Source: Vulcanimicrobiota bacterium (lineage in GTDB: Bacteria; Vulcanimicrobiota; Xenobia; Xenobiales; JADMJV01). Taken from it: a stretch of 64,000 nt of DNA. The DNA lies in assembly GCA_019637395.1 (NCBI GenBank), contig JAHBVR010000009.1:266412-330411 (forward strand). Direction: 5' to 3'. Positions within the stretch are counted from its first letter, which is position 1; each line of letters opens with the position of its first letter. The translations under genes and the position numbers were made by a program. The notes beneath the pieces were generated by a model. The model was given only the letters and a program-made list of their open reading frames with translations. It did no database searches and was not told the DNA's origin. Of this stretch, positions 9,234 to 51,059 are shown piece after piece.

Positions 9234-9921
9234 ACTGCTCTCGCTGCTCTCGCGCAAATTTGTCTTGATGGTCAGCCTGCCCAAAAACGATCCCAAGCTG
9301 GCGGTGGCCGCCGTGGAATCCGGCGCTCAATGCTTGAAGGTGCACATCAACTGCCACCATTTCGCCAGCGGCACCACTTTTCACGCCTGGAAAGAAGAGC
9401 GCAAAGCCATTCTTGAGGTGCTCTCGGCGGTGGATGTGCCGATCGGCATTGTGACCGGAGAAGAAACCCAACCGGATGCGGAAGACCTGGCCGACATCCA
9501 GAGCCAGCGCTTCGACTTTTGGGACCTGTTCGCCAAATTCACCCCCCCCGGACATCTGAAACTGTCCATGGGCCGGATGGTGGCGGTCGACAGCGGCTGG
9601 ACTCCCGACTTGATGAAAGCGCTGGAAGAAATCGGCATCCACATCATCGAGGGCTCGGTGATTCCTAAAACCGAATACCGCACTCCCCTCAACCTGGTCG
9701 ATCTGGCTACCTACCTGCGCCTGACCCGGGCCAGCAATATGCCGGTCCTGATTCCCACCCAGAAGGCGGTTCAGCCCCATGAGGTGGGGGCGCTGCAGAA
9801 AGTGGGCGCGGCCGGCCTGACCATCGGCGCGGTGGTGACCGGACTGGAGGAAGCCGGCCTGCGCGCGGCCACTCGGGCCTTCGCCGAGCACATCGAGGAC
9901 CTGCCCCCCAATCAGGGCTGA
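9226..9921 (+). CDS. Hypothetical protein (possible TIM-barrel-like fold). Overlaps smc stop and is coupled to the next gene
   Basis: 231-aa ORF, coding-like composition. 3' end abuts the start of the DUF4127-like gene. Confidence 0.45.
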   Translation: MSKLLSLLSRKFVLMVSLPKNDPKLAVAAVESGAQCLKVHINCHHFASGTTFHAWKEERKAILEVLSAVDVPIGIVTGEETQPDAEDLADIQSQRFDFWDLFAKFTPPGHLKLSMGRMVAVDSGWTPDLMKALEEIGIHIIEGSVIPKTEYRTPLNLVDLATYLRLTRASNMPVLIPTQKAVQPHEVGALQKVGAAGLTIGAVVTGLEEAGLRAATRAFAEHIEDLPPNQG

Positions 9922-11234
9922 TGCGAGACTGGCTTTTCATTCCCCTGGACGACCGGCCGTGCTGCCGCCAGTTCCCCCAGCGTTTGGCCAGCCTGGAACT
10001 GCCGCCCCGGGAACTGCTGGGCAACTTTCAAGAACCGGGTAACGGCGAGGCCCTGCTTGACTGGCTGGAAGAGCGTGCCAGCGGCGCTCCCGGCGCCATC
10101 GTTTCCATCGACATGCTGGTGTGGGGCGGCCTGGTGGCCAGTCGCCATCCCTCCGGCGATCTCAAGCGGGCTCTGGCCAGGCTGCAACGGCTGTGGGAAA
10201 TCCGCCAGCGCCACGACCTGAAGCTACTGGCCTTTCAGACCATCATGCGCAACGCCCCCACGCAGACCACCGCCGAGGAGGTGGAGTGGGCGGAAGCCAT
10301 CGTGGAGTTTTCCCAGGATCCCGACAACGAGGTGCTGCGCTCGGCCATTCCCTCCCAGGTGTTACACGACTACATGCGGGTGCGCCAGCGCAACCTGCGC
10401 ATCTATCGAGAATTGGCCCAGCATGCCTGGGAGTCGAACTATCTGGTTTTCGCTCTCGACGACAGCAAAACTTCCGGCTGGAATTTATTGGAACTCAACT
10501 CGCTGGGTGAGGTCAACTCCTTACCAGGCACCGACGAGACCGGCCTGCTGCTGGTCTGCCGGGCCCTGGCCCGCCGGCGCACCATTCAGGTCGATTGGTC
10601 GCACGCTGACTTGCCTCAGTTACAGGGACTTTATGAGGACCGGCCGGCCGGGGCGGTGCTCAAAGCCCAGATGCAGGCGGCCCAACTGGAGGAAGGCAGC
10701 TCCAATGACCAGCTCTGGCTCTACGGGCGCGAGAACCATCCCCAGATCGAAGCCCGCTCCCAACAATTCGCGGAAGTGGACGGAGCCTGGCTGGCTTACC
10801 TGGGAACAGCGCTGGCGGCCGGCGCCCGCATCGTGCTGGTGGACCTGACTTTCGCCAACGGGGGCGACTTGAGCCTGGGACAGGCTTTACGCAGCCGTGG
10901 TCTGTGGCCCAAACTGGCCGGCTATTCGGCCTGGAATACGCTGGGAAACCGTGTCGGCTGCGGACTGGCCACGCTGGCGCTGGACGCCACCCCGGAGTTC
11001 CTGGCCGAACGGCTGGCCGACGACTTGCTTTACCAGGCCGACTTCCGCTGGCGGGCCGCCCGGATGCTCGGCCATCCCGGTCTGACTCTGAGCGACCACG
11101 AGGCCAGGCGGGTGGAGCTGGAGATTTTTCCCGCCTTGCGCGAGCGAGTCAAGGCCTATCTGCCGGCCCATTGCGAATTTCGCCTGCCCTGGCAACGACT
11201 TTTCGAAGTGGAATGCGAGTCCAGATTCGAGTAA
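9921..11234 (+). CDS. DUF4127-like protein of unknown function
   Basis: N-terminal IPLDDRPC motif recalled as characteristic of the DUF4127 family. 437 aa. Confidence 0.5.
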   Translation: MRDWLFIPLDDRPCCRQFPQRLASLELPPRELLGNFQEPGNGEALLDWLEERASGAPGAIVSIDMLVWGGLVASRHPSGDLKRALARLQRLWEIRQRHDLKLLAFQTIMRNAPTQTTAEEVEWAEAIVEFSQDPDNEVLRSAIPSQVLHDYMRVRQRNLRIYRELAQHAWESNYLVFALDDSKTSGWNLLELNSLGEVNSLPGTDETGLLLVCRALARRRTIQVDWSHADLPQLQGLYEDRPAGAVLKAQMQAAQLEEGSSNDQLWLYGRENHPQIEARSQQFAEVDGAWLAYLGTALAAGARIVLVDLTFANGGDLSLGQALRSRGLWPKLAGYSAWNTLGNRVGCGLATLALDATPEFLAERLADDLLYQADFRWRAARMLGHPGLTLSDHEARRVELEIFPALRERVKAYLPAHCEFRLPWQRLFEVECESRFE

Positions 11235-14906: not shown

Positions 14907-16169
14907 ATGCCGCGGTGGTTTCTTGTGTTTCTTCTAGTGGCCCCTGCCGGGCTTTCGGTTTCTGGCAAGGAGCCCTACGGCCTGGCGGTTGTGGACGAAG
15001 CTGGCCGCCTTGAGCGGGTGGCTCTGGAAAAGGCGGCCCGGCCGCTACTTCTCAGAGGTGCGGCCATGGCCATCGTGCTGGTGCGACGGGGCGGCCAGCC
15101 GGACGCGGTCAAGCAACTCAGTCAGCTCGGGCTGCTTCACGATCGGCAAATTTCCCCTTCCGGGCTTTATCTTTACGTCAGCCTGCAACCTCACTACAGC
15201 GAACTGCGCGCGGGAGCGCGCTTCAGCGCTGACCTGCCGGCCCGTCAACTGGAGAAAATCCGGAACCAGACGCTCAATCCCCAACTACGCGCGGAGCTCT
15301 ACCAGCAGGGCTTCGTGGACTCCCTTGGGGAATTGGAGCGGAGTCTTTCCCACAGTCTTTCGCTCAAGGATTGGCTGAAGGGAGCGACGCTCACCTTCAT
15401 AGCCTGCGGCACCCTTTATCTGGTGGGCTTTTGGGATTGGCTTTGGGCTACTCTCCCGGGGCGAGGCCTGTTCTGGCTGTGGTGCCTGACACCCATCGCG
15501 CGTGCCCGGCGGCGCCGGGAAAGGGAGCGAGCGCGCCTCGGGCAACTGCACCTGCTGCAAGGGCGAGCCGAGTCCCTGGAAAGGACGCAGCAGAACTCGC
15601 CGAGGTTGAATTCCGTCCAGCGCGCCGACCTGGCCTCGCTCCAGGAGCAAGTGAAGGCCGCCGCGCTCCTCGGCCTCTCGGAGTTAGCCGAACTTCGCGC
15701 TCGCCTGGAGGCCGAAAGCAGGCGCCTGGAACGGCTGCAACGCTGCCACACCTCCGGAAGCAACGAGCTACGCGAGGCTCAGCGGATATTTCAATCGATC
15801 CGGTCCACCCTGAAGTCCCGCAAAAAGACCCGGGCCTTGTTGCAGAGCCCGGAAGCACAGGCCCTGGAAGCCGAACTCAGACAAGAGTCCGACCTGCGTC
15901 AACACTACAGCGAAGCCGGCGCCAGCTTCGAAGAATTCGAGCAATCCGAGCTGCGCTGCAAAAATCTTCAGCAACGCGCGCGGGAGTTCGGGCAGATTCA
16001 CGGAGTGCTTCCGCGCGGCCCGCAAGTTCAAACGGGCTGGGCGACGGCCTCAGCCAGCAGCGAATCTCCCGGCTATCACGGCAGTTCGACTTCCCACTAC
16101 GACGACCGAAGCGGCAGCTACGACCCGCCCACCTCTTCGTCCGAGAGCTGGGCCGGCGGCGACTGGTGA
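14907..16169 (+). CDS. TPM-domain (YgcG-like) membrane protein with cytoplasmic coiled-coil and Ser/Gly-rich tail
   Basis: Signal-like N-terminus, TPM-like block IVLVRRGGQPD..LYLYVSLQPHYSELRAGARFS, TM LTFIACGTLYLVGFWDWLWATL, C-terminal SGSYDPPTSSSESWAGGDW. Confidence 0.5.
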   Translation: MPRWFLVFLLVAPAGLSVSGKEPYGLAVVDEAGRLERVALEKAARPLLLRGAAMAIVLVRRGGQPDAVKQLSQLGLLHDRQISPSGLYLYVSLQPHYSELRAGARFSADLPARQLEKIRNQTLNPQLRAELYQQGFVDSLGELERSLSHSLSLKDWLKGATLTFIACGTLYLVGFWDWLWATLPGRGLFWLWCLTPIARARRRRERERARLGQLHLLQGRAESLERTQQNSPRLNSVQRADLASLQEQVKAAALLGLSELAELRARLEAESRRLERLQRCHTSGSNELREAQRIFQSIRSTLKSRKKTRALLQSPEAQALEAELRQESDLRQHYSEAGASFEEFEQSELRCKNLQQRAREFGQIHGVLPRGPQVQTGWATASASSESPGYHGSSTSHYDDRSGSYDPPTSSSESWAGGDW

Positions 16170-16171
16170 AT

Positions 16172-17314
16172 CTACGATATCTGACCCAGGAATGAATAGA
16201 GGGGCAGAAAGATCGAGAGGATCACGGTGGCAACCAGACTGGCCACGCTGGCCAGCAGCAGGGGCTCCATGGCCGCGCTCATGGCGTCGACCGCGTAGTT
16301 CATTTCCAGGTCATAGTAGGCGCCGGCCCGTCCGAACATTTCGGGCATGCGCGAAGCCTGCTCGCCGGCCATCACCATGTGGGCCAACGAAGGCGGATAA
16401 ATATCCGGATTCATGGCCATATGGTCGGAGACCGGCTCGCCCTCGGTAATGGTTTTCTCCATGAACGGCGCATCTTGAATGAATTCCGGATTGCCACTGG
16501 CGCCGGCCGCCATGCGCAGGGTGCGGGCCAGGTCCATACCGGATGCCAGCATCGCTTCCACCGAGCAGCAGTAACGGGCGCAGGCACCCTTCTGAAGCAT
16601 CGATCCGATCAAGGGAATTCGGCGCAAAAATCGCCAGGTGGCCACCTGCCCATTGGGAGTTTTCAAGAACTCGCGTCCGGCCGTCAACACCACTCCGATG
16701 GTACCGACCAGCAGCAACCAGAATCCCGGCTGGCGCACGGCTTCGGTAATGAACATGATGATGCGCGTAATCAGCGGCAGAGGCACGTTCATGTCTTTGA
16801 AAATGGTGAGAAAGCTGGGCAGCACCGTGTAAAACATGAACAAGGTCAACACCACCGCCAGAATGAGCACGAAACAGGGATACGACATGGCCGACTTGAG
16901 ACGTTCGCGCAGACGATTATCGCGCTCCAACCAATCCGACAGACGTTCCAGTGAAGTATCCAGTTCACCCGTACGTTCGCCGATCTGAACCAGTGTCGAA
17001 TAGATCTTGGTAAAAATCCTGGGATAGAAGGTCATCTGGTAGGAAAGCACGTGACCTTGCGATACCTTCTCGGCCAGATCGCGGATCACTTCCCCGAAGT
17101 TGGGATACTCTTCCTGATGAGACAGGGTTTCCAGCGCCTGCACGATGGGCACGGCGTTGCGCAGCATCGTCGCCAATTGCCGGCTGAAGATGCACAGAGC
17201 CTGAGGGGGGACAGTGACTTTGGCTCGCCAGTCGCCAGGCGCCCCCGGTGCAGTACTCGGCGTAGGTGCGGCCATTGCCAGGAGATTTGATGTCAGGTTC
17301 ATTTGTCCTGGCAA
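16172..17314 (-). CDS. Type II secretion / type IV pilus platform protein (GspF/PilC family)
   Basis: Two T2SS-F repeats, FSRQLATMLRNAVPIVQAL and a second repeat, with 3 TM segments. N-terminal cytoplasmic lead shorter than usual. No adjacent secretion ATPase. Confidence 0.85.
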   Translation of the reverse strand: MPGQMNLTSNLLAMAAPTPSTAPGAPGDWRAKVTVPPQALCIFSRQLATMLRNAVPIVQALETLSHQEEYPNFGEVIRDLAEKVSQGHVLSYQMTFYPRIFTKIYSTLVQIGERTGELDTSLERLSDWLERDNRLRERLKSAMSYPCFVLILAVVLTLFMFYTVLPSFLTIFKDMNVPLPLITRIIMFITEAVRQPGFWLLLVGTIGVVLTAGREFLKTPNGQVATWRFLRRIPLIGSMLQKGACARYCCSVEAMLASGMDLARTLRMAAGASGNPEFIQDAPFMEKTITEGEPVSDHMAMNPDIYPPSLAHMVMAGEQASRMPEMFGRAGAYYDLEMNYAVDAMSAAMEPLLLASVASLVATVILSIFLPLYSFLGQIS

Positions 17315-17399
17315 ATGGCTGGATTATCCCACTCCAGGACTCCTTGTGGAGGGCGAGAAGTGCAGTGGGAAAGCTATCAAGTATGAGGAGTCTGTCAGG

Positions 17400-20300
17400 A
17401 TGTGCGGTATCGCAGGTCTGGTTTATGAATACAATTCAAGCACCCCGGCCAAGGATTGGCCGGCACTGGAAGAAGCCCTGCAGCGCCTGCGCAACCACAC
17501 TCCCGACTGGAATCAACCCGATCCCGTCTTGCCACTGTTGGATTCGGTGGAAGAGCAGTTGCGCGACATCCGCGAATGGCCTATTCTCAGCCAGCTCTGG
17601 TCCAACCCCGGCCGCCAAGAGCAACTGAATCAAGCAGCCATCGGTCTCGATTTCTGGGATCAGCAGCTGCAGAAAGCCACCACCTCCTCCGATCTCTCCA
17701 TTGCCCTGCTGGAAACCTGGAACGCCATCAGCGTGCGCGTGCGCGATATCGGCTGGACCCTCCAGCAAGACGCTCTGGGCGGTCTGCGGCGCTGCGCCGC
17801 TTTGCTGCCGCACGCCTGGCGGGACAATCCGAAAGCTTGTTTTGAAGCCTGGAAACTGACGGTTACGCTGGAGAACATCGGCCGCATGGAAGTGCGCGGT
17901 CGTGACTCGCTGGGGTTTTCGGTCATGGTTTCGTTTCCCGAGCGCGCCTCGCTGGGCGTCTGGCGTGACAAACTGAACGAAACCCAACAGCATTTGCTCC
18001 ATCAACGCCTGCAGGGAGTGGATCTGGTCGACCAGGCCATCGTGCTTGACGAGGCCAGCGTGATTTTTGTCTACAAAGTGGCCCAAGAAGTGGGCGCGCT
18101 GGGCGATAATGTAGCCCAGATCACTTCGCAAATGAAGAGGGACGAACTGCTCTGGCTGGCGCTGGCTCCGGAAACCTCCCGGGTCAACGTCTTCTCGCAC
18201 ACCCGCTGGGCTTCCAACGGAATCATCAGCGAGCCCAACTGCCATCCTATTTCCGAGCTGACTCTGAAGCAGAACGGCAAAACCAGTGGCGCGCCCTCGC
18301 CCCATCGCATCATGGTCTGCTTGAACGGCGATGTCGACAACTACCAGGAGCTGTGCGCCCGCATCACCTCCGAAACAGGCCGCACCATTCCCGCCAAAAT
18401 CACTACCGACACCAAGATCATCCCGGTACTGGTCGACTACAACTTCCAAAAATGCAAAGACATGCGCGAGGCCTTCATCAAGACGGTCCAGCACTGCGAA
18501 GGCTCGATCGCGGTCATCATGCACAACAGCCTGGAGCCGAAACGAATTTACCTGGCTCTGCGCGGCTCCGGCCAGGCCCTTTTCGTGGGATTGTGCCGTT
18601 ATGGCTATGTCTTTGCTTCCGAACTTTATGGCGTGGTCGAACAAACGCAGCGCTTTTTCCGCGTGGACGGCACCACCGAGCGCGTGCCCGGCAAGCCCGA
18701 CAGCGCCGGCCAGGTGGTGGTGCTCGAATCCAACGGCGCCGGCGAGATGGAGGCCGTGGAACTGTGGTCCTTCGACGGTGAGCGGCTGCCCTGCGACCAG
18801 GTGAAAATTCATCAGGCCGAGATCACCACCCGCGATATCAACCGCGGCTCCTTCTCCCATTATCTGCTCAAGGAGATCAACGAAGCTCCCGAGTCGATTC
18901 GCAAGACGCTGCGCGGCAAGTTCCAGCTGGACGCCGAGGCACGCCAGGCGCGCATGAACCTGGATTCCAAAGTCATTCCCGACGAAGCCCTGGAACGTCT
19001 GCGCCAGGGCCAAATTCGCCGGTTGCTCTTTATCGGCCAGGGCACGGCCGCCGTGGCCGGCCAGGCGGTGGCCGCCATCGCCTCCCGCGTGCTCGGTTCC
19101 AAGCTGGCCGTGCAGGCCATGAAAGCCACCGAACTGTCCGGCTACTCCATGGATCAAAAGCTGGACGATGCCCTCATCATCGCTATTTCCCAGTCCGGCA
19201 CCACCACCGACACCAACCGCACCGTGGACATGGCCAAAGCGCACGGGGCCACTGTCATGGCTATCGTCAACCGGCGCAATTCCGACCTGGTCTACAAGGT
19301 AGACGGCGTGCTCTATACCAGCGACGGCCGCGACATCGAGATGTCGGTGGCTTCCACCAAGGCTTTCTACAGTCAGGTGGTGGCCGGCTATCTGGTAACT
19401 TACCATCTGGCCAGCCTGCTCGGGCTGATGGAGCAGCAAGAGCTTTACCGCGAGCTGTCGGAGCTGATGCGCCTGCCCGACCTCATGAAAGCGGTGCTGG
19501 CTGACCCGGGGCGCATCCGCGAATTTGCCGAGCACTGGGCGCCCGTGCGCCGCGACTGGGCCATCGTGGGCAGCGGTCCCACTCGCGCCGCCGCCGATGA
19601 GATCCGCATCAAATTGAGCGAACTCTGCTACAAGTCGATCGCCACCGACTACATCGAGGACAAAAAGCACATTGATCTGTCGTCTGAGCCGCTTACGCTG
19701 GTGTGCGCCGCCGGTCTGCCGCTGGTGGCTCTGAAAGATGCGGTCAAGGAAGTGGCCATCTTCAAGGCCCATAAATCGGTGCCCATCGTGATTACCACCG
19801 AAGGATTTACGGCCTTCGAACCCTATGCCGCCGGCGTGCTCTACGTGCCCAAGAGCTCGGAAGCAGCTTCGGTGCTGCTCAACACACTGGTGGGCCATTT
19901 GTGGGGCTACTTCTGCGCCGGCGCCATCGATCGCGGCGCGGAACAGCTCCGCCACGCCCGCGCTCTGGCCGTGCAGGTCTTGACCGAGAGCGATAAAATC
20001 GAGCTTTCCCCCAGCCTGCTACGCCAGGTGCGCGACCTGGGGCGCCGTTTTCAAGACGAACTCTGGCGCGGCCGCTTCAACAGCAGCCTGTCGCTGGAGG
20101 TCGGCAGCAAACTGGGCGGGCTCTTCCAGTACTTCACCGGTGCCAGTTCGCTGCGCCAGTTCGCGGCCGAGTTCCAGGCGCCGCCTACCGCCGGCGGCGT
20201 GGCCGAGGTGCTCGTGCAATCGCTGTCGCAGGCCATCGCCGAGCTGAGCCGGCCCATCGACGCCATCAAACATCAGGCCAAGACGGTCACGGTGGGCATC

Positions 20301-20918
20301 TCCCGCCTCGAGGAAAGCTACGACGGCCCGCTCTTTGACGCTCTGCGCCAGCTCTCCATCGAACCCGATTCGGTGCCTTATGCCGATCTGGTCACCCTGC
20401 GAGTGGTCAGCCAGGCCGTGCGGGAGGTCTCGGGCATCACCTGCTACCAGGTGGATGGGCTGGGCACCATGGGCGAGGTAACGGCCGCCTCCACCGTCAA
20501 GGTGATTGCCAAGCTGGGACGAGCCGCCCAAATGCGCAGCCGCGCCGACAAGTCGCACGTGCTGGTGGGCACCAAGGAATGGTGCGTGCGTCGCGGCTCC
20601 ACCTACATCGGGCGCGGCCGCAAGGACCAATGCCCGATCATGATCGTACCCAGCGCTCCGCGCGGACAGGTCGAACGGCTGGCCCTGCTGCATCTGGATT
20701 TGCACGATCAACTGGCCATCGACCACAAGGTTTCGCTGTTGCGCGACCTGTCGGGTCGCTACGAGGACGTCAAAAGCCAGGTGCTGGAAACCGACGCGGA
20801 ATGGACGGACGCGGTTTTGGAGGGCATCTCCGCGGCCGATCTGATTTTGCTGCCCGTCGAACAACTTACCGAGCGCGTGCTGGCCTATTTTACCAAGGGC
20901 CAGGAAGCCAGAGTATGA
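17400..20918 (+). CDS. Giant GlmS-like glutamine amidotransferase (class II Ntn) with two SIS domains plus large insertion and C-terminal extension
   Basis: Start MCGIAGL (Cys2 nucleophile) with RBS GAGGAG 8 nt upstream. GATase-2 motifs RGRDSLGF and HTRWASNG. SIS motifs LFIGQGTA..SQSGTTTDT and WAIVGSGPTRAAADE. 1172 aa against about 610 for canonical GlmS. Confidence 0.8.
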   Translation: MCGIAGLVYEYNSSTPAKDWPALEEALQRLRNHTPDWNQPDPVLPLLDSVEEQLRDIREWPILSQLWSNPGRQEQLNQAAIGLDFWDQQLQKATTSSDLSIALLETWNAISVRVRDIGWTLQQDALGGLRRCAALLPHAWRDNPKACFEAWKLTVTLENIGRMEVRGRDSLGFSVMVSFPERASLGVWRDKLNETQQHLLHQRLQGVDLVDQAIVLDEASVIFVYKVAQEVGALGDNVAQITSQMKRDELLWLALAPETSRVNVFSHTRWASNGIISEPNCHPISELTLKQNGKTSGAPSPHRIMVCLNGDVDNYQELCARITSETGRTIPAKITTDTKIIPVLVDYNFQKCKDMREAFIKTVQHCEGSIAVIMHNSLEPKRIYLALRGSGQALFVGLCRYGYVFASELYGVVEQTQRFFRVDGTTERVPGKPDSAGQVVVLESNGAGEMEAVELWSFDGERLPCDQVKIHQAEITTRDINRGSFSHYLLKEINEAPESIRKTLRGKFQLDAEARQARMNLDSKVIPDEALERLRQGQIRRLLFIGQGTAAVAGQAVAAIASRVLGSKLAVQAMKATELSGYSMDQKLDDALIIAISQSGTTTDTNRTVDMAKAHGATVMAIVNRRNSDLVYKVDGVLYTSDGRDIEMSVASTKAFYSQVVAGYLVTYHLASLLGLMEQQELYRELSELMRLPDLMKAVLADPGRIREFAEHWAPVRRDWAIVGSGPTRAAADEIRIKLSELCYKSIATDYIEDKKHIDLSSEPLTLVCAAGLPLVALKDAVKEVAIFKAHKSVPIVITTEGFTAFEPYAAGVLYVPKSSEAASVLLNTLVGHLWGYFCAGAIDRGAEQLRHARALAVQVLTESDKIELSPSLLRQVRDLGRRFQDELWRGRFNSSLSLEVGSKLGGLFQYFTGASSLRQFAAEFQAPPTAGGVAEVLVQSLSQAIAELSRPIDAIKHQAKTVTVGISRLEESYDGPLFDALRQLSIEPDSVPYADLVTLRVVSQAVREVSGITCYQVDGLGTMGEVTAASTVKVIAKLGRAAQMRSRADKSHVLVGTKEWCVRRGSTYIGRGRKDQCPIMIVPSAPRGQVERLALLHLDLHDQLAIDHKVSLLRDLSGRYEDVKSQVLETDAEWTDAVLEGISAADLILLPVEQLTERVLAYFTKGQEARV

Positions 20919-20927
20919 CCCTGACTG

Positions 20928-20957
20928 TTGACAATCTCGGGTTGTACTCAGTATAGT
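20928..20957 (+). promoter_or_regulatory. Sigma70-like promoter for rpmH-rnpA operon (TTGACA-N18-TATAGT)
   Basis: Consensus -35 and near-consensus -10 about 25 nt upstream of the rpmH RBS GGAGGAA. Confidence 0.45.
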
Positions 20958-20980: not shown

Positions 20981-21115
20981 ATGAAACGCACTTATCAACC
21001 CAAAAAGAAGACTCGCAAAACCGAGCACGGATTCTTCAAACGGATGAGCACTCCGGGCGGCCGTAAGGTTCTGTCCCGCCGCCGGGCCAAGGGACGGGTA
21101 CGTCTCACCTATTAA
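20981..21115 (+). CDS. rpmH: 50S ribosomal protein L34
   Basis: Hand translation [44 protein letters not shown]. Below the ORF-track length cut-off. RBS GGAGGAA. Confidence 0.9.
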
Positions 21116-27648: not shown

Positions 27649-30600
27649 TTAAACGGACCCGCCCGTCTTCAGCAGGTCCACCACATATTTGCCCAGCAGT
27701 TTGGTCTGGGTGGTGGAGATTTCCGCGAACTTGGCGCTGTGGGTCCAACCGATGCCGGCCTCATCGTGACGGGAGCTGATCACTTCGCAGTTGAGTTCGA
27801 GCTTGTCGTGATTGCCCAACGGACCCATATGCAACGTGAAGCGGGTGGTCGGACTCAACGGTCGGTCCACGGCCAGCAAAGCGCCGCCCAAGCCGATGTC
27901 GAGGGCGGTACCAGGGTGGCGCTCTTTGGTCTTGAGGTCAATTTCGATCGGCAGGTTGGCGGCCGCGCGCGTATATTTGCGCTGGTTGAAGACTTTCGAC
28001 TGCATGCCAATTTTGTTGAGAACAGTGATGACCCAGGATTTGCCCAACACCTCAGGTGATTCCTCGAACTGCAGACCGATGTCGAACTTACCCTCTTCAT
28101 CGCGGCTGGGACGCAACCATACAATACGGGCCGTTACGGGATCTTTGACGCGAGCTTCGGGCAGTGGATTGGAAACCTGAATCAACTGACCGCGCTGAAA
28201 GTTGCTGGCAGGCCCTTGCAGCTTGCCGCCGCCGAGGCTGATGTCGACCAGCTTCACGCTGACAGGACGGCCTTCCAGGTAGGCGCTGGTGTCGTAACTG
28301 CAAGCCAGACGAACGAGGCGGCGACGTTCCTGGGCACTCGCTCCTCCATCAAAGGAAGGCGCGGTGGCGACCGCTGCTTCCACCGCACCAGGAGGAGGCG
28401 CCGCCACCGCCTCCTCGGCAGCCACTTCTTCAATGGCCGCCTCCAGGCTGGTTTCAGACGAGGGTTGGCTGACTGGCGCTTCTTCAGTAGGAGCGACGGG
28501 CGCGGCGGTGGGCTCCGCCAGCGGTTCATCCAACCAGGAGGCGGTGGTCGGCCCGGCATCTCCGAAGAAGTCACCGCCTACGTCCATGCTCTCACCCGAG
28601 CCGACCAACAGGTCCTCGCCACTGGCGGCAGGGCTATCGATGACGGCCAGCGGCTCACTGGAAGCGAAGAAATCCTCTTCCCCCGAGACGATGGGTTGCC
28701 CTTCGAAGAGGTCGTCGGGCCCGGGCAGCTCCGCGCTGACGAATTCTGTTACCGGCTCCTCAAAGACGGGTTCCGTCACCTGCTGGTCGGGCCCCTCAAA
28801 CAAGTTCGCGGGACCGGCCAGTTCCCCGGAAACCTCGACCGCGATCGGCTCTTCCACTTCGGCCGGAGCTTCAACCGCGATCGGCTCTTCCACCTCGACC
28901 GGAGCTTCAAACGCGATCGGTTCTTCCACCTCGACCGGCGCTTCGACCGCGATCGGCTCTTCCACCTCGGCCGGAACTCCAACCGCGATCGGTTCTTCCA
29001 CCTCGGCCGGCGCTTCGACCGCGATCGGCTCTTCCACCTCGGCCGGAGCTTCAACCGTGATCGGCTCCTCCACCTCGATCGGCGCTTCGACCGCGATCGG
29101 CTCTTCCACCTCGACCGGAGCTTCGACCGCGATCGGCTCCTCCACCTCGGCAGGCGCTTCGACGGCGATCGGCTCTTCCACCTCGGCCGGAACTTCGACC
29201 GCGATCGGCTCTTCCACCTCGGCCGGAGGCTCGACCGCGATCGACTCCTCTACCTCGATCGGCGCTTCGACCGCGATCGGTTCTTCCACCTCGGCAGGAG
29301 GCTCGATCAGGATCGGCTCCTCCAGCTCAACCGGAGCCTCGGGCGCATCAACCTGCAGCGGCTCATCGATGACAACTTCTGTCATCTCGGCTTCAGGTTC
29401 GAGCAGGTCCAGATCGTCGTCGAGCGCCAGCTCGTCAAAGTCGAGATGATCCAGGTCGACGTCGGCCAGCTCACCCAGGTCGAGTTCGTCTTCGCTTACC
29501 TCGAGATCGAATGCCCCCACTTCCAGCTCATCGAGTTCCTCCAGAGCACCGAGATCGTAGTCCACCTGCGCATCCAGGAAAGGCTCCAAACCCTCTGAGT
29601 CGTCGATATCATACGCACGATCGGCCTCTGCATCAGCTACTGCCGGGGCCAACTCCAGGTCGTCTTCCAACTCGAGGTCGAGATCATCCAGGAAGGGAGC
29701 ACCCAGCTCCTCGTCCACCAGCTCGGCCTCGTCCTCGTCGAACAAGAGATTGGCGTCCAGCTCATCTAGAGCGAGCAAATCATCGCCTTCCAGGTCGAGG
29801 TTGTCATAGTCAAACTCGCCGAGCTCATCCAGGTCCAGATCGCCGACATCGAGGTCGCCAAGCTCGAACTCCTCCCCGCTGAGGTCAAGGTCGTCGAGGA
29901 GGTCGTCCTGCAGGAGCAACTCATCATCTTCGGGGATGGCCGGAAGATCCTCAGCGGTGATGTCCTGAGGTTCAAATAAGGGAGCACGGGCGGCCGGTTT
30001 TTCGGCTCGCGACAGCCAGGCCAGCGGAGCGGGCTTGGGCTGGCCGGCGGGGGACCTCCTGGTCGGCGTCTCCCCTGAACTCAAGCTGAACGGCTGGGGC
30101 TTGGGACGCCTTGGCCGGCGAACCGGAGGGCTATCGCCTCCCAGGCGCAACTCGGTGGCCGGTGGATGCGTGCGAGCCTTGCGCTCCACGCGCACCGACA
30201 GCCAGCTCGGGGTCTCGGCCGAGCCGGCGGGTTTTCTGAGTTCGAAATCAGGGGAGGAGCGTTCGCTCTCGACCGGCCGCGAGTAATAGTAGGGGACATC
30301 GTCTTCAAAGTCCTGGTCGCGATAGAGCGGACCCCGGGCGCGCACCGGCTGGTAGTCTTCGCGGGTGAACTCTTCCCGAGAACGATGGAACTTGGAAAAA
30401 TGTTGGGTTATCCGGGTGCGCGGATCGGCCGTTCGCTCAAAAGATTCTTCACTATCCGAGCGGCGGCGGCGTTCCCGGTAGATACCCGGGACATCCACGG
30501 CGGCGGAGATTTGTCCGAGCAGTCGGGCCCGTTCTTGCTCGGCTTCCCAAATCAGTTGCTCGGTGAGGCGAACCGAGCGTCCGTCCTGGCGGCGAACCTC

Positions 30601-30834
30601 CAGTTCACGCTTGAGGCTGTGGAGAATTTCTTCAACGTCCGCCAGACTCTCGCGTAAGTTCTGGAGACGGAGCAAGGCCAGCCGATCGGCGGCGTAGTTG
30701 ACCATGTCCTGCAGCCCGCTGGTCTCGCGACTGCGCCGGGCCAGTGGCGGCAAGTCAGGATCAACCGCTCCCTCAAAAGAGGAAGCAGCCTGCCGCAGCC
30801 TGCCGGGTAGGTCTGATCCTTGATACTCCGCCAT
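27649..30834 (-). CDS. Large acidic repeat protein with C-terminal tandem PilZ (c-di-GMP receptor-like) domains
   Basis: 1061 aa: coiled-coil N-domain, Pro/Arg-rich linker, about 200-aa D/E/L-rich low-complexity region, 14 copies of PAEVEEPIAVEA, then two PilZ motifs (RRRLVRL..DISLGGGKLQ and QRKYTRA..DIGLGGALLAV). Confidence 0.8.
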   Translation of the reverse strand: MAEYQGSDLPGRLRQAASSFEGAVDPDLPPLARRSRETSGLQDMVNYAADRLALLRLQNLRESLADVEEILHSLKRELEVRRQDGRSVRLTEQLIWEAEQERARLLGQISAAVDVPGIYRERRRRSDSEESFERTADPRTRITQHFSKFHRSREEFTREDYQPVRARGPLYRDQDFEDDVPYYYSRPVESERSSPDFELRKPAGSAETPSWLSVRVERKARTHPPATELRLGGDSPPVRRPRRPKPQPFSLSSGETPTRRSPAGQPKPAPLAWLSRAEKPAARAPLFEPQDITAEDLPAIPEDDELLLQDDLLDDLDLSGEEFELGDLDVGDLDLDELGEFDYDNLDLEGDDLLALDELDANLLFDEDEAELVDEELGAPFLDDLDLELEDDLELAPAVADAEADRAYDIDDSEGLEPFLDAQVDYDLGALEELDELEVGAFDLEVSEDELDLGELADVDLDHLDFDELALDDDLDLLEPEAEMTEVVIDEPLQVDAPEAPVELEEPILIEPPAEVEEPIAVEAPIEVEESIAVEPPAEVEEPIAVEVPAEVEEPIAVEAPAEVEEPIAVEAPVEVEEPIAVEAPIEVEEPITVEAPAEVEEPIAVEAPAEVEEPIAVGVPAEVEEPIAVEAPVEVEEPIAFEAPVEVEEPIAVEAPAEVEEPIAVEVSGELAGPANLFEGPDQQVTEPVFEEPVTEFVSAELPGPDDLFEGQPIVSGEEDFFASSEPLAVIDSPAASGEDLLVGSGESMDVGGDFFGDAGPTTASWLDEPLAEPTAAPVAPTEEAPVSQPSSETSLEAAIEEVAAEEAVAAPPPGAVEAAVATAPSFDGGASAQERRRLVRLACSYDTSAYLEGRPVSVKLVDISLGGGKLQGPASNFQRGQLIQVSNPLPEARVKDPVTARIVWLRPSRDEEGKFDIGLQFEESPEVLGKSWVITVLNKIGMQSKVFNQRKYTRAAANLPIEIDLKTKERHPGTALDIGLGGALLAVDRPLSPTTRFTLHMGPLGNHDKLELNCEVISSRHDEAGIGWTHSAKFAEISTTQTKLLGKYVVDLLKTGGSV
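28838..29345. repeat. 36-bp tandem repeat, about 14 copies (codes for the 12-aa PAEVEEPIAVEA units)
   Basis: Plus-strand unit ggctcttccacctcggccggagcttcgaccgcgatc reiterated with point variants. Confidence 0.85.
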
Positions 30835-49223: not shown

Positions 49224-51059
49224 CTAGACCAGGCCGAGCACTTCTACATCGGCAAAGTTGTCCATGACGCGCCGGCTGCGCGCCTGCTTCAAGCACTCCA
49301 GCGCGCGGGCCAGCGGCACCGTCTGCTGTTCCTTGACGCAGTAGCGCCTCCAGGTCACTTCTTGCTGTTCCTGCTCACGTTCACCCACGATAAAGATGTT
49401 GGGCGTTTTGGAGGTGGCGGCGTTGCGGATCTTCTTGTTGAATGAATCGCTGCCCAGATCGGCCTCGGCCCGGAAGCCCAATTTGAAGAGCTCCTGAGCT
49501 ACCTTTTGGGCGTAGTCCCCGAAGTTCTCGACATGAACCGGCACCACCACTACCTGGCGGGGAGCCATCCAGGTGGGGAAAGCCCCTTTGAAATGCTCGA
49601 TCAGGAAGGCCAGGAAGCGTTCGTGGGTTCCCAGCGGGGCGCGATGGATGCAGTAAGGAACGTGTTCCTGTCCGTCGGTTCCCACGTAGGTCAGGTTAAA
49701 GCGGGCCGGTACGGCAAAATCCAACTGATTGGTGGAGGCGGTTTCCTCGCGGCCCACCACGTTGCGCACCTGGAAGTCCACTTTGGGCCCGTAGAAGGCG
49801 GCTTCGTCCTCGCCAATCTGATAGTCAATGCCAATCTCGTCGAGAATGCCCTTGATGACGGCTTCCGATTTGATCCAGTCTTCCGGCATGTTGACGTATT
49901 TGTCTCCCAGCCGCTCGGGGGTGTGGGTGGACAGGCGCATCCAGAAATGGGAGAGACGGAACATTTCGTAGTAGCGCTTGTGCAGGTCGAGCACTTTGGT
50001 GAATTCGTCCTTGAGCTGTTCGGGGGTGCAGTAGATGTGGGCGTCGTTCATGCACATGCCGCGCACCCGCAGCAGACCGGCCAGCGAGCCGGAACCCTCG
50101 TAACGATAGACCTGCCCATACTCGGCCAGGCGAATCGGCATCTCACGGTAAGAGCGCGGCCGGTTGCCGAAAATCAGGTGGTGAAACGGGCAGTTCATGG
50201 GCTTGAGGTAATATTCGCGGTTCTCGTCGACGACCATGGCCGGGAACATGCCTTCTTTATAGTGGGCCAGGTGGCCCGAGGTTTCAAAGAGCTTACCGTC
50301 GGTCACATGAGGCGTGGCCACCCGCTGGTAGCCATCGGCGAATTCCCACTCCTTGGCCAGATTCTCGAGCTCATCGCGCAGCACGGTGCCGTTGGGCATC
50401 CACAAGGGCAAGCCGGGTCCGACATGATCGGAGATCATAAAGATCTCCAGCTCTTTGCCCAACTTGCGGTGGTCGTATTTTTTAGCTTCCTCGCGCAGGC
50501 GCACGAACTCTTTGAGTTCGGCCTTGGTGTCGAAGGCCAGGCCGTAGATGCGGGTCAACTGTTCGCGCTTCTCATCGCCGCGCCAGTAGGCTCCGGCCAG
50601 GCTATCGAGTTGGAAACAGTCGGCGGGAATCTGGCCGGTATGTTCCACATGCGGTCCGGCGCACATGTCCTCGAAAGGACCATTACGGTAGAAGCTGAGG
50701 CTTTCGCCACGCGAAGCCAGGTCCTGGCAATATTCCGCTTTCAGATTCTCGCCCTGCTCGTTGAGCATAGCCACCGCCTCGGCGGCCGTCATTTCGCGGC
50801 GTTCGAAAGGCTGCTTCTCGTTGATGATCTTGCGCATCTCTTTTTCGATAGCGCCAAAATCCTCATCGCTGATCGGCTCGGCAAAGTGGAAATCGTAATA
50901 AAACCCGTTTTCCACCGGTGGGCCGAAGCCCAACCTGGTGCCGGGCCGCACTTTCTGCACCGCCTGCGCCAAAATGTGGGCCAGCGAGTGACGCCGCTTG
51001 TAGAGCGGGTCGTTCTCCTTGCCCTCAAAATCCAGCCCCGCATACGCCTTCTTGGCCAT
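49224..51059 (-). CDS. thrS: Threonine--tRNA ligase, short form lacking N-terminal TGS domain
   Basis: RRHSLAHIL, FYYDF, class II motifs, RDHRKLGKELEIF, 611 aa. Confidence 0.9.
   Translation of the reverse strand: MAKKAYAGLDFEGKENDPLYKRRHSLAHILAQAVQKVRPGTRLGFGPPVENGFYYDFHFAEPISDEDFGAIEKEMRKIINEKQPFERREMTAAEAVAMLNEQGENLKAEYCQDLASRGESLSFYRNGPFEDMCAGPHVEHTGQIPADCFQLDSLAGAYWRGDEKREQLTRIYGLAFDTKAELKEFVRLREEAKKYDHRKLGKELEIFMISDHVGPGLPLWMPNGTVLRDELENLAKEWEFADGYQRVATPHVTDGKLFETSGHLAHYKEGMFPAMVVDENREYYLKPMNCPFHHLIFGNRPRSYREMPIRLAEYGQVYRYEGSGSLAGLLRVRGMCMNDAHIYCTPEQLKDEFTKVLDLHKRYYEMFRLSHFWMRLSTHTPERLGDKYVNMPEDWIKSEAVIKGILDEIGIDYQIGEDEAAFYGPKVDFQVRNVVGREETASTNQLDFAVPARFNLTYVGTDGQEHVPYCIHRAPLGTHERFLAFLIEHFKGAFPTWMAPRQVVVVPVHVENFGDYAQKVAQELFKLGFRAEADLGSDSFNKKIRNAATSKTPNIFIVGEREQEQQEVTWRRYCVKEQQTVPLARALECLKQARSRRVMDNFADVEVLGLV

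Follow-up and report, generated by a model that had tools for sequence, protein, structure and literature searches.

Glutamine--fructose-6-phosphate aminotransferase (GlmS, EC 2.6.1.16) performs the committed and usually essential step of amino-sugar synthesis for the cell wall and lipopolysaccharide, and is an antibiotic target. In the E. coli enzyme, K485, E488, and H504 serve isomerase catalysis, and the HTRWAT motif includes the channel Trp. Bacterial control of GlmS is diverse and includes the glmS ribozyme, the GlmY/GlmZ small RNAs, GlmR, and EIIA-Ntr. Here, a gene for a GlmS-like protein of about twice the normal size was analyzed in a 64,000-nucleotide stretch of a Vulcanimicrobiota bacterium (contig JAHBVR010000009.1, positions 266,412 to 330,411; "the window" below). 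The most likely function of this protein, and one that we consider very probable because of its intact active sites and the genomic context in relatives, is that of a genuine glucosamine 6-phosphate (GlcN6P) synthase.

The C-tail of described GlmS enzymes becomes ordered only upon binding of fructose 6-phosphate (Fru6P) and closes the isomerase site, and Fru6P binding boosts glutaminase activity ~100-fold (PMC10087520). The eukaryotic counterpart, GFAT, is allosterically feedback-inhibited by uridine diphosphate N-acetylglucosamine (UDP-GlcNAc) (PMC10087520). In Salmonella, EIIA-Ntr inhibits GlmS in trans and itself acts downstream of PtsP, a nitrogen sensor with a GAF domain (PMC5024086).

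The window protein shares with bacterial GlmS (E. coli structures PDB 1jxa, 2j6h, and 4amv; TIGR01135) the N-terminal nucleophile (Ntn) Cys, the glutamine-binding residues, two SIS subdomains, equivalents of K485, E488, and H504, a putative Lys603-type tail motif, and the modeled arrangement of both catalytic domains. In several lineages, the long form also shares the link to glmM and glmU-like genes. It differs in its length, in a 134-aa helical insertion, in a bundle of ~100 aa before the tail, in an internal tail that is followed by a 200-aa domain, in an Ala at the position of S303, and in having no glmS ribozyme. The best overall structural matches of the long form are GFAT-1 and GFAT-2 (PDB 6r4e and related; E ~1e-28). 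GFAT is also longer than bacterial GlmS, through regulatory insertions in its glutaminase domain. Those insertions, in contrast, are short loops located elsewhere (~680 aa in total), UDP-GlcNAc binds the isomerase domain itself, and GFAT has neither the helical bundle nor the C-terminal sensor-like domain.

Gene and domain architecture

The long-form gene lies within an uninterrupted open reading frame (ORF) at 17214..20918 (+). Position 17400 was taken as the real start because homologs of ~1150–1260 aa align end to end with the 1172-aa product. The gene and its parts are listed below, with secondary structure taken from AlphaFold2 (AF2) models and model confidence given as the predicted local distance difference test (pLDDT) and predicted template modeling (pTM) scores.

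17385..17390 (+), Shine-Dalgarno-like GAGGAG, 9 nt 5' of ATG 17400, by direct sequence reading
17400..20918 (+), long-form GlmS gene, 1172 aa plus stop
17400..17426 (+), nucleophile strand MCGIAGLVY, residues 1–9, Met plus Cys2 of the Ntn glutaminase domain
17427..17828 (+), N-terminal insertion, residues 10–143, predicted all-helical with five helices, two of them of 27–35 residues; AF2 pLDDT mostly 85–95
17829..18809 (+), glutaminase core, residues 144–470, with helix alpha1, RGRDS (R168, D169, S170), HTRWAS (H267–S272), N309-G310, and D337
18861..19934 (+), two SIS subdomains (isomerase domain), residues 488–845, from HMMER and hhalign to E. coli GlmS, invariance, and Foldseek
19947..20243 (+), helical bundle, residues 850–948, after the last SIS2 helix and ahead of the probable catalytic tail, from AF2 secondary structure
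20244..20306 (+), C-tail motif LSRPIDAIKHQAKTVTVGISR, residues 949–969, with K961 as the probable equivalent of E. coli Lys603
20328..20912 (+), C-terminal alpha/beta domain, residues 977–1171; stand-alone AF2 model with pLDDT 94.5 and pTM 0.88
20610–20651 (+), block GRGRKDQCPIMIVP, residues 1071–1084, within the C-terminal domain

The product is an exact match of MBX3169061.1/MCW5866499.1, a "SIS domain-containing protein" from a metagenome-assembled genome (MAG) of Candidatus Eremiobacteraeota. NCBI PGAP gives the long form this name only, because its scores fall below the curated GlmS cutoffs, and IMG and UniProt name it GlmS by similarity.

Catalytic residues and fold

The initial annotation, made from the window sequence, had recognized a GlmS-like protein of twice the usual size by its hallmark motifs, and these proved to be invariant in an alignment of 40 diverse family members, on which all conservation counts rest. 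Cys2 is present in 39 of the 40, and the lone exception is a mis-called start. On the glutaminase side, R168, D169, H267, R269, W270, N309, G310, and D337 are invariant (40/40), as is S170, which aligns to the E. coli RGYDS motif. The isomerase domain contains the phosphate loop S597-Q598-S599-G600-T602, the VASTK strand at 650–654, K738/E741, and H757. Invariance there extends to Q598, S599, T602, A651, S652, T653, and K654 (40/40), to G600, and to the catalytic residues K738, E741, and H757 (40/40; E. coli K485, E488, and H504). The E. coli counterparts of the other elements are R26-G-Y-D-S, the HTRWAT region with R73 and T76, N98-G99, D123, and the sugar-phosphate loop S347-Q348-S349-T352.

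Pfam matches were limited to GATase_6/7 at residues 265–409 and a single SIS at 540–665; the curated GlmS models cover residues 264–844. The top PDB sequence match was E. coli GlmS (E 7.5e-23), and hhalign placed residues 68–591 of that enzyme onto residues 263–842 of the query with a probability of 99.9%. Core identity to bacterial GlmS is only ~20–27%. The full-length AF2 model, built with the 40-sequence alignment, has a pLDDT of 87.6 and a pTM of 0.74. Both of its catalytic domains overlay together on those of E. coli GlmS and of human GFAT-1 (E ~1e-28, TMt 0.63–0.69). Foldseek comparison with isolated GlmS/GFAT isomerase domains gave a TMt of ~0.87 and a root-mean-square deviation of 2.6–3.0 A.

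Among the features used to define GlmS membership, the N-terminal Cys, the glutamine-site residues, the SIS sugar-phosphate loop and VASTK strand, and the isomerase residues are present, as is, in relatives, the association with hexosamine-pathway genes; the curated score cutoff is not reached. The protein is therefore filed as a divergent long-form GlmS subfamily and not as a canonical member, since it agrees with GlmS at the level of residues and fold but falls short of the curated cutoffs and departs from the canonical two-domain architecture.

A probable internal catalytic tail

The motif LSRPIDAIKHQAKTVTVGISR resembles the E. coli tail ...DQPRNLAKSVTVE (PRNLAKSVTVE type). Its consensus in the family is RPxDxIxHQAKTVTVG, with K961 invariant in 40/40, and it is the best-conserved segment of the protein, at 93% mean identity across the family versus 65% for the SIS domains. 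Residues 956–971 form the sole low-pLDDT stretch of the AF2 model, which is consistent with a mobile lid like the GlmS C-tail. The segment is internal, lies ~100 residues away from SIS2, and is outside the HMMER and hhalign local alignments; its likely equivalence to Lys603 rests on motif, order, and model disorder.

The position of the tail changes how the C-terminal region should be read. A C-terminal extension of ~250 aa had been described earlier. Extra residues do exist, but ~325 of them follow the SIS2 core and they are not a simple extension. With the probable catalytic tail at 949–969, which the initial annotation had missed, the "extension" is really an insertion before the tail (the bundle at 850–948) plus a domain after it (977–1171).

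Three additional modules

An insertion of ~150 aa that separates the Cys and RGRDS strands, as had been suggested from the window sequence, occurs in every family member. It spans residues ~10–143 in the window protein, is 148–172 aa long in all 40 members, and was not found in canonical GlmS. Its conserved face, ExWN...RD..W, includes E105, N108, D116, and W119. Mean identity is 26%, and the crude ratio of non-synonymous to synonymous change (dN/dS) is ~0.4. The helical bundle extends from an elongated last SIS2 helix, measures 103–120 aa in all 40 members, and has a crude dN/dS of ~0.08.

The C-terminal domain is 195–205 aa long in all 40 members, and its invariant residues include G1012, Y1016, G1040, S1047, R1048, G1057, K1059, G1071, G1073, D1076, P1084, and E1130. 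Four of these (G1071, G1073, D1076, and P1084) fall in the block GRGRKDQCPIMIVP, so that its conserved look, remarked on earlier, was borne out. The invariant S1047, R1048, K1059, D1076, and E1130 together with six glycines are suggestive of a putative anionic-ligand pocket. In Foldseek, this domain best matched GAF or GAF-like domains, with weak scores (E 6e-3 to 8e-2, TM 0.3–0.47). GAF domains, which are sensors of small molecules (PtsP/EI-Ntr, 3ci6 and 3trc; 3e0y; the GAF-like fRMsr, 4mmn), have a similar alpha/beta sandwich, in which helices flank an antiparallel sheet. The C-terminal domain differs from them in showing no similarity to any Pfam GAF model, with TM values of 0.3–0.47 and E values above 1e-3, and none of 29 members matched a GAF sequence profile at E <= 1. 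The modeled fold is provisionally assigned as weakly GAF-like.

None of the three modules had a Pfam or PDB sequence match. A profile of the C-terminal domain searched against 1.84 billion representatives recovered 424 proteins, in which the domain is always the C-terminus of proteins of ~1130–1280 aa or of contig-edge fragments thereof, except in P0181 and P0189, which have the same architecture followed by a further tail. No other architecture was found among the 424, and short matches were contig-edge fragments. On this basis, the domain is family-specific, being confined to the C-terminus of these proteins. The three add-ons behave as integral, constant parts of the protein, with fixed lengths in all members and a C-terminal domain that occurs nowhere else. 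In the sub-branch of P0181 and P0189, which are low-GC members, the extra tail after the C-terminal domain is ~290 aa long, rich in coiled coil, and without a Pfam match.

Distribution and reality of the long form

Full-length homologs numbered more than 120 among the matches listed (39–94% identity), and confirmed loci with full-length homologs were found in at least 598 GTDB species among species-representative genomes. Carriers belong to Xenobia/Eremiobacterota/UBP9, very many Desulfobacterales, Syntrophales, Desulfomonilia, Planctomycetota, and Acidimicrobiia, with single carriers in Riflebacteria and Bacteriovoracaceae. A second protein search identified the cultured carriers Desulfobacula toluolica Tol2 (complete genome; protein CCK79486.1/K0NEJ8), D. 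phenolica, and Desulfocicer vacuolatum DSM 3385; Desulfospira joergensenii, Desulfobacter curvatus, and D. vibrioformis are further cultured carriers. The initial annotation had allowed that the large form could simply be the standard GlmS of its lineage, and this largely holds, given its conservation in so many species and the GlmS name already assigned by IMG and UniProt.

An artificial origin of the large size, through a frameshift, a misassembly, or fused ORFs, has practically no probability, and nothing was found in its favor; frameshift and assembly artefacts had been a concern from the outset. The full-length form recurs in all of the species counted above, and full-length proteins that are identical or nearly so come from numerous independent contigs as well as from complete genomes. 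The frame is continuous, and the AF2 model is a confident single chain. In comparison with a 75%-identical relative, synonymous change exceeds non-synonymous change in every region (crude dN/dS 0.08–0.41), and all regions, each module included, are under purifying selection.

In the branch formed by Desulfobacterales, Syntrophales, and Desulfomonilia, 37–59 residues precede the nucleophile Cys, and no Met stands beside it (e.g., ...ENSIIVFPDKPNTVS|CGISAF). This pre-Cys stretch contains a conserved "[IL][IVL][VLF]FP" motif. Examples are L089:10001-10160 (D. toluolica Tol2, FO203503.1), P0101, P0104, P0109, P0114, P0115, P0119, P0120, P0280, P0345, and P0393. Because the nucleophile Cys of an Ntn amidotransferase has to be the free N-terminal residue, the stretch is probably a cleaved propeptide, which implies that processing would expose the Cys in this branch; the window protein starts with Met-Cys and has no propeptide. 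Propeptide-bearing Ntn amidotransferases include B. subtilis PurF and the glutamate synthase GltB. The pre-Cys extension of the Desulfobacterales and Syntrophales branch is similar to theirs, in contrast to the window protein, which lacks one. We know of no report of a propeptide in GlmS.

Genomic context in relatives

The surroundings of 88 family loci were surveyed over 10 kb on either side, using tblastn for GlmM and GlmS-like genes. GlmM was found within this distance in 12 of the 88, representing at least three clades, and no second GlmS-like gene was found in any. Neither the window nor the 88 related loci contained a conserved specialized biosynthetic or glycosyltransferase cluster around the gene.

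In L004, from an anaerobic-digester lineage with 40% identity, the order is gltB-gltD-glnA-carA-[gene]-GlmU-like LbH-GlmM-NagB-like-carB-pyrG, where GlmM scores 588 bits against a cutoff of 447. In L008, the order is GlmU-like-[gene]-GlmM (543 bits). Three Acidimicrobiia MAGs share the order rpoA-rplQ...rplM-rpsI-glmM (518 bits)-[gene]-acpS-nnr-CBS-alr. In actinobacteria, glmS lies a few genes from rplM-rpsI-glmM. The glmS and glmM genes of M. tuberculosis are Rv3436c and Rv3441c, respectively (PMC9366312). In Acidimicrobiia, the long form appears to occupy the position expected of the canonical actinobacterial glmS. A penicillin-binding protein transpeptidase gene precedes the long form in a housekeeping block of D. 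toluolica Tol2.

The region L004:113-22602 as a whole forms a nitrogen "supercluster," which is opened by a GAF-sigma54 activator and groups glutamine synthesis with four glutamine-consuming amidotransferases.

Proposed function and rival explanations

The best explanation overall, and in our assessment probably the right one, is a housekeeping GlmS in a long form, with add-ons that would exert allosteric control over the catalytic tail. Under this proposal, the protein would be the organism's GlmS and would catalyze the first step of UDP-GlcNAc synthesis. Cys2 would hydrolyze glutamine, the ammonia would be channeled to the isomerase site of the SIS domains, and K738, E741, and H757, together with K961 of the tail, would turn Fru6P into GlcN6P. 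In GlmS, sugar binding is coupled to glutaminase activation through movement of the C-tail and of the glutaminase elements beside the nucleophile Cys. The same parts would move in the long form, and the modules would have been grafted at exactly these points, with the helical insertion right after the nucleophile strand and with the bundle and GAF-like domain tethering the tail from both sides. A small anionic metabolite may bind the C-terminal domain (S1047, R1048, K1059, D1076). Candidate ligands are GlcN6P and UDP-GlcNAc, or else signals of nitrogen status, for example glutamine or 2-oxoglutarate. Once bound, the ligand would move or release the tail, decide whether it closes over the sugar site, and so switch enzyme activity. 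Such control in cis by the add-ons would replace the RNA-based or trans-acting protein regulation of canonical bacterial GlmS. Salmonella EIIA-Ntr and eukaryotic GFAT may serve, in spirit, as precedents for an allosteric reading. A regulatory role of the add-ons is advanced tentatively, at somewhat less than even confidence. The full scheme, in which the long form is the sole GlmS of its carriers, contains a cis-acting allosteric switch gated by a pathway product or nitrogen signal, with the GAF-like domain and both helical modules gripping the C-tail and the nucleophile strand, and in Desulfobacterales is activated by propeptide removal, is rather doubtful as a whole.

The initial annotation had offered a true GlmS with regulatory appendages as one possibility. 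Its GlmS part fits the invariant residues, the fold, and the linkage to glmM and GlmU-like genes; its regulatory part is what we infer. Some observations weigh against a genuine GlmS. Bit scores with the curated models are about half of the cutoffs (209.9 versus 418 for TIGR01135 and 225.4 versus 381 for NF001484), and distant family members also score below them. E. coli Ser303, beside the phosphate site, is replaced by an invariant Ala (A550). Most loci, the window included, have no hexosamine-pathway neighbor. The protein could instead be a specialized paralog beside a canonical glmS, aminating another ketose phosphate or maintaining an amino-sugar pool of its own, for use in an envelope polymer or natural product. 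Such a paralog would account for the low bit scores and for the Ser303 replacement, and the patchy spread over phyla could reflect an accessory gene, but all Fru6P/GlcN6P-contacting and catalytic residues except S303 are invariant, and no neighbors recur other than glmM and genes of the GlmU-like and NagB-like types. The Acidimicrobiia gene stands beside glmM in a block that resembles the canonical actinobacterial arrangement. The absence of a second GlmS-like gene within 10 kb of the 88 loci, the lack of a conserved glycosyltransferase or biosynthetic cluster, and the purely housekeeping content of the window likewise argue against a paralog, which we regard as highly improbable. The earlier suggestion of an amidotransferase for a different sugar phosphate is disfavored on the same ground, as no specialized cluster occurs in the window or at the 88 related loci.

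The main rival to a regulatory role accepts a true GlmS and takes the add-ons to be architectural, as an oligomerization or stabilizing scaffold (a fixed dimer or hexamer, or a shield for the ammonia channel) that does not respond to small molecules. Of the three add-ons, two are plain helical bundles that belong to no recognizable ligand-binding family, the GAF-like call is weak, and the N-terminal insertion is poorly conserved in sequence (26%, dN/dS ~0.4) and conserved in length, as is typical of scaffolds. Canonical GlmS, moreover, already makes use of oligomer equilibria, its hexamer being inactive and its dimer active (PMC10087520). The C-terminal domain is harder to reconcile with a scaffold. 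Its invariant polar and charged residues (S1047, R1048, K1059, D1076, E1130) and glycines are more pocket-like than interface-like, and its best structural matches are sensor domains. It is also precisely the mobile catalytic tail, known to switch GlmS on and off, that the add-ons enclose. A purely architectural role is considered unlikely, and allosteric control of the tail is retained as the preferred explanation of the add-ons.

Novelty and implications

No published description of the large-GlmS architecture was found in the literature searched. The functional assignment had been made before; what appears to be undescribed is the architecture, with its breadth and its three unclassified modules. 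The distribution of the long form over at least 598 species of Eremiobacterota, sulfate-reducing Desulfobacterales, Syntrophales, some Planctomycetota, and Acidimicrobiia suggests that a large and environmentally important share of bacterial diversity relies on a different solution, one built into the protein. Since curated models miss the long form, metabolic reconstructions of such MAGs may wrongly report glmS as missing. The three add-ons, which have no Pfam family or solved relative, would be new domain definitions.

Gene neighborhood in the window

The gene is flanked by a divergent pilC-like gene and by rpmH-rnpA-yidC-jag-mnmE-mnmG, with SMC, DnaX, Lon, and ThrS also encoded in the window, whose gene content is core and housekeeping only. 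As the initial annotation had stated, rpmH follows directly downstream on the same strand; it is succeeded by rnpA, yidC, jag, mnmE, and mnmG. The features on this side of the gene are:

20928..20957 (+), rpmH promoter, sigma-70-type TTGACA-18-TATAGT, with 11/12 consensus matches
20981..21115 (+), rpmH, ribosomal protein L34, 44 aa, from translation; a neighbor only

The promoter starts 10 nt past the glmS stop codon and ends 24 nt 5' of rpmH. It marks the downstream boundary of the glmS unit and is not part of it. Because this near-consensus promoter lies between the two genes, transcription of rpmH-rnpA is taken to be independent of the upstream gene. The adjacency to rpmH is not conserved in relatives and is already absent in the 75%-identical relative. 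A functional link between glmS and rpmH was rejected on these two grounds, the own promoter of rpmH and the lost adjacency.

No sigma-70-like promoter was detected on the + strand in the 85-nt gap upstream of glmS, and neither a glmS ribozyme nor any other RNA element matched Rfam at the gathering threshold in the whole window. The sole window ORF of ~610 aa, considered as a candidate for a canonical glmS (611 aa, 49224-51059, -), is ThrS. GlmM, GlmU, and a second GlmS were not found in the window by tblastn. A role in a defense system was rejected, with no PADLOC match.

Three other gene products of the window were noted. Two genes upstream of the long glmS, the ORF at 14907-16169 (+) encodes 420 aa whose N-terminus resembles a signal peptide; a membrane segment lies at the center, and there is a long coiled region rich in Arg, Glu, and Gln. 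It has no Pfam or NCBIfam match. A full-length DUF4127 protein (9921-11234, +; 283 bits) adjoins SMC. At 27649-30834 (-), a 1061-aa protein has as its only recognizable feature a pair of PilZ (cyclic di-GMP-binding) domains at residues ~836–927, the other ~800 residues being without assignment. In the relative L006, a PilZ protein is encoded just upstream of the long glmS.

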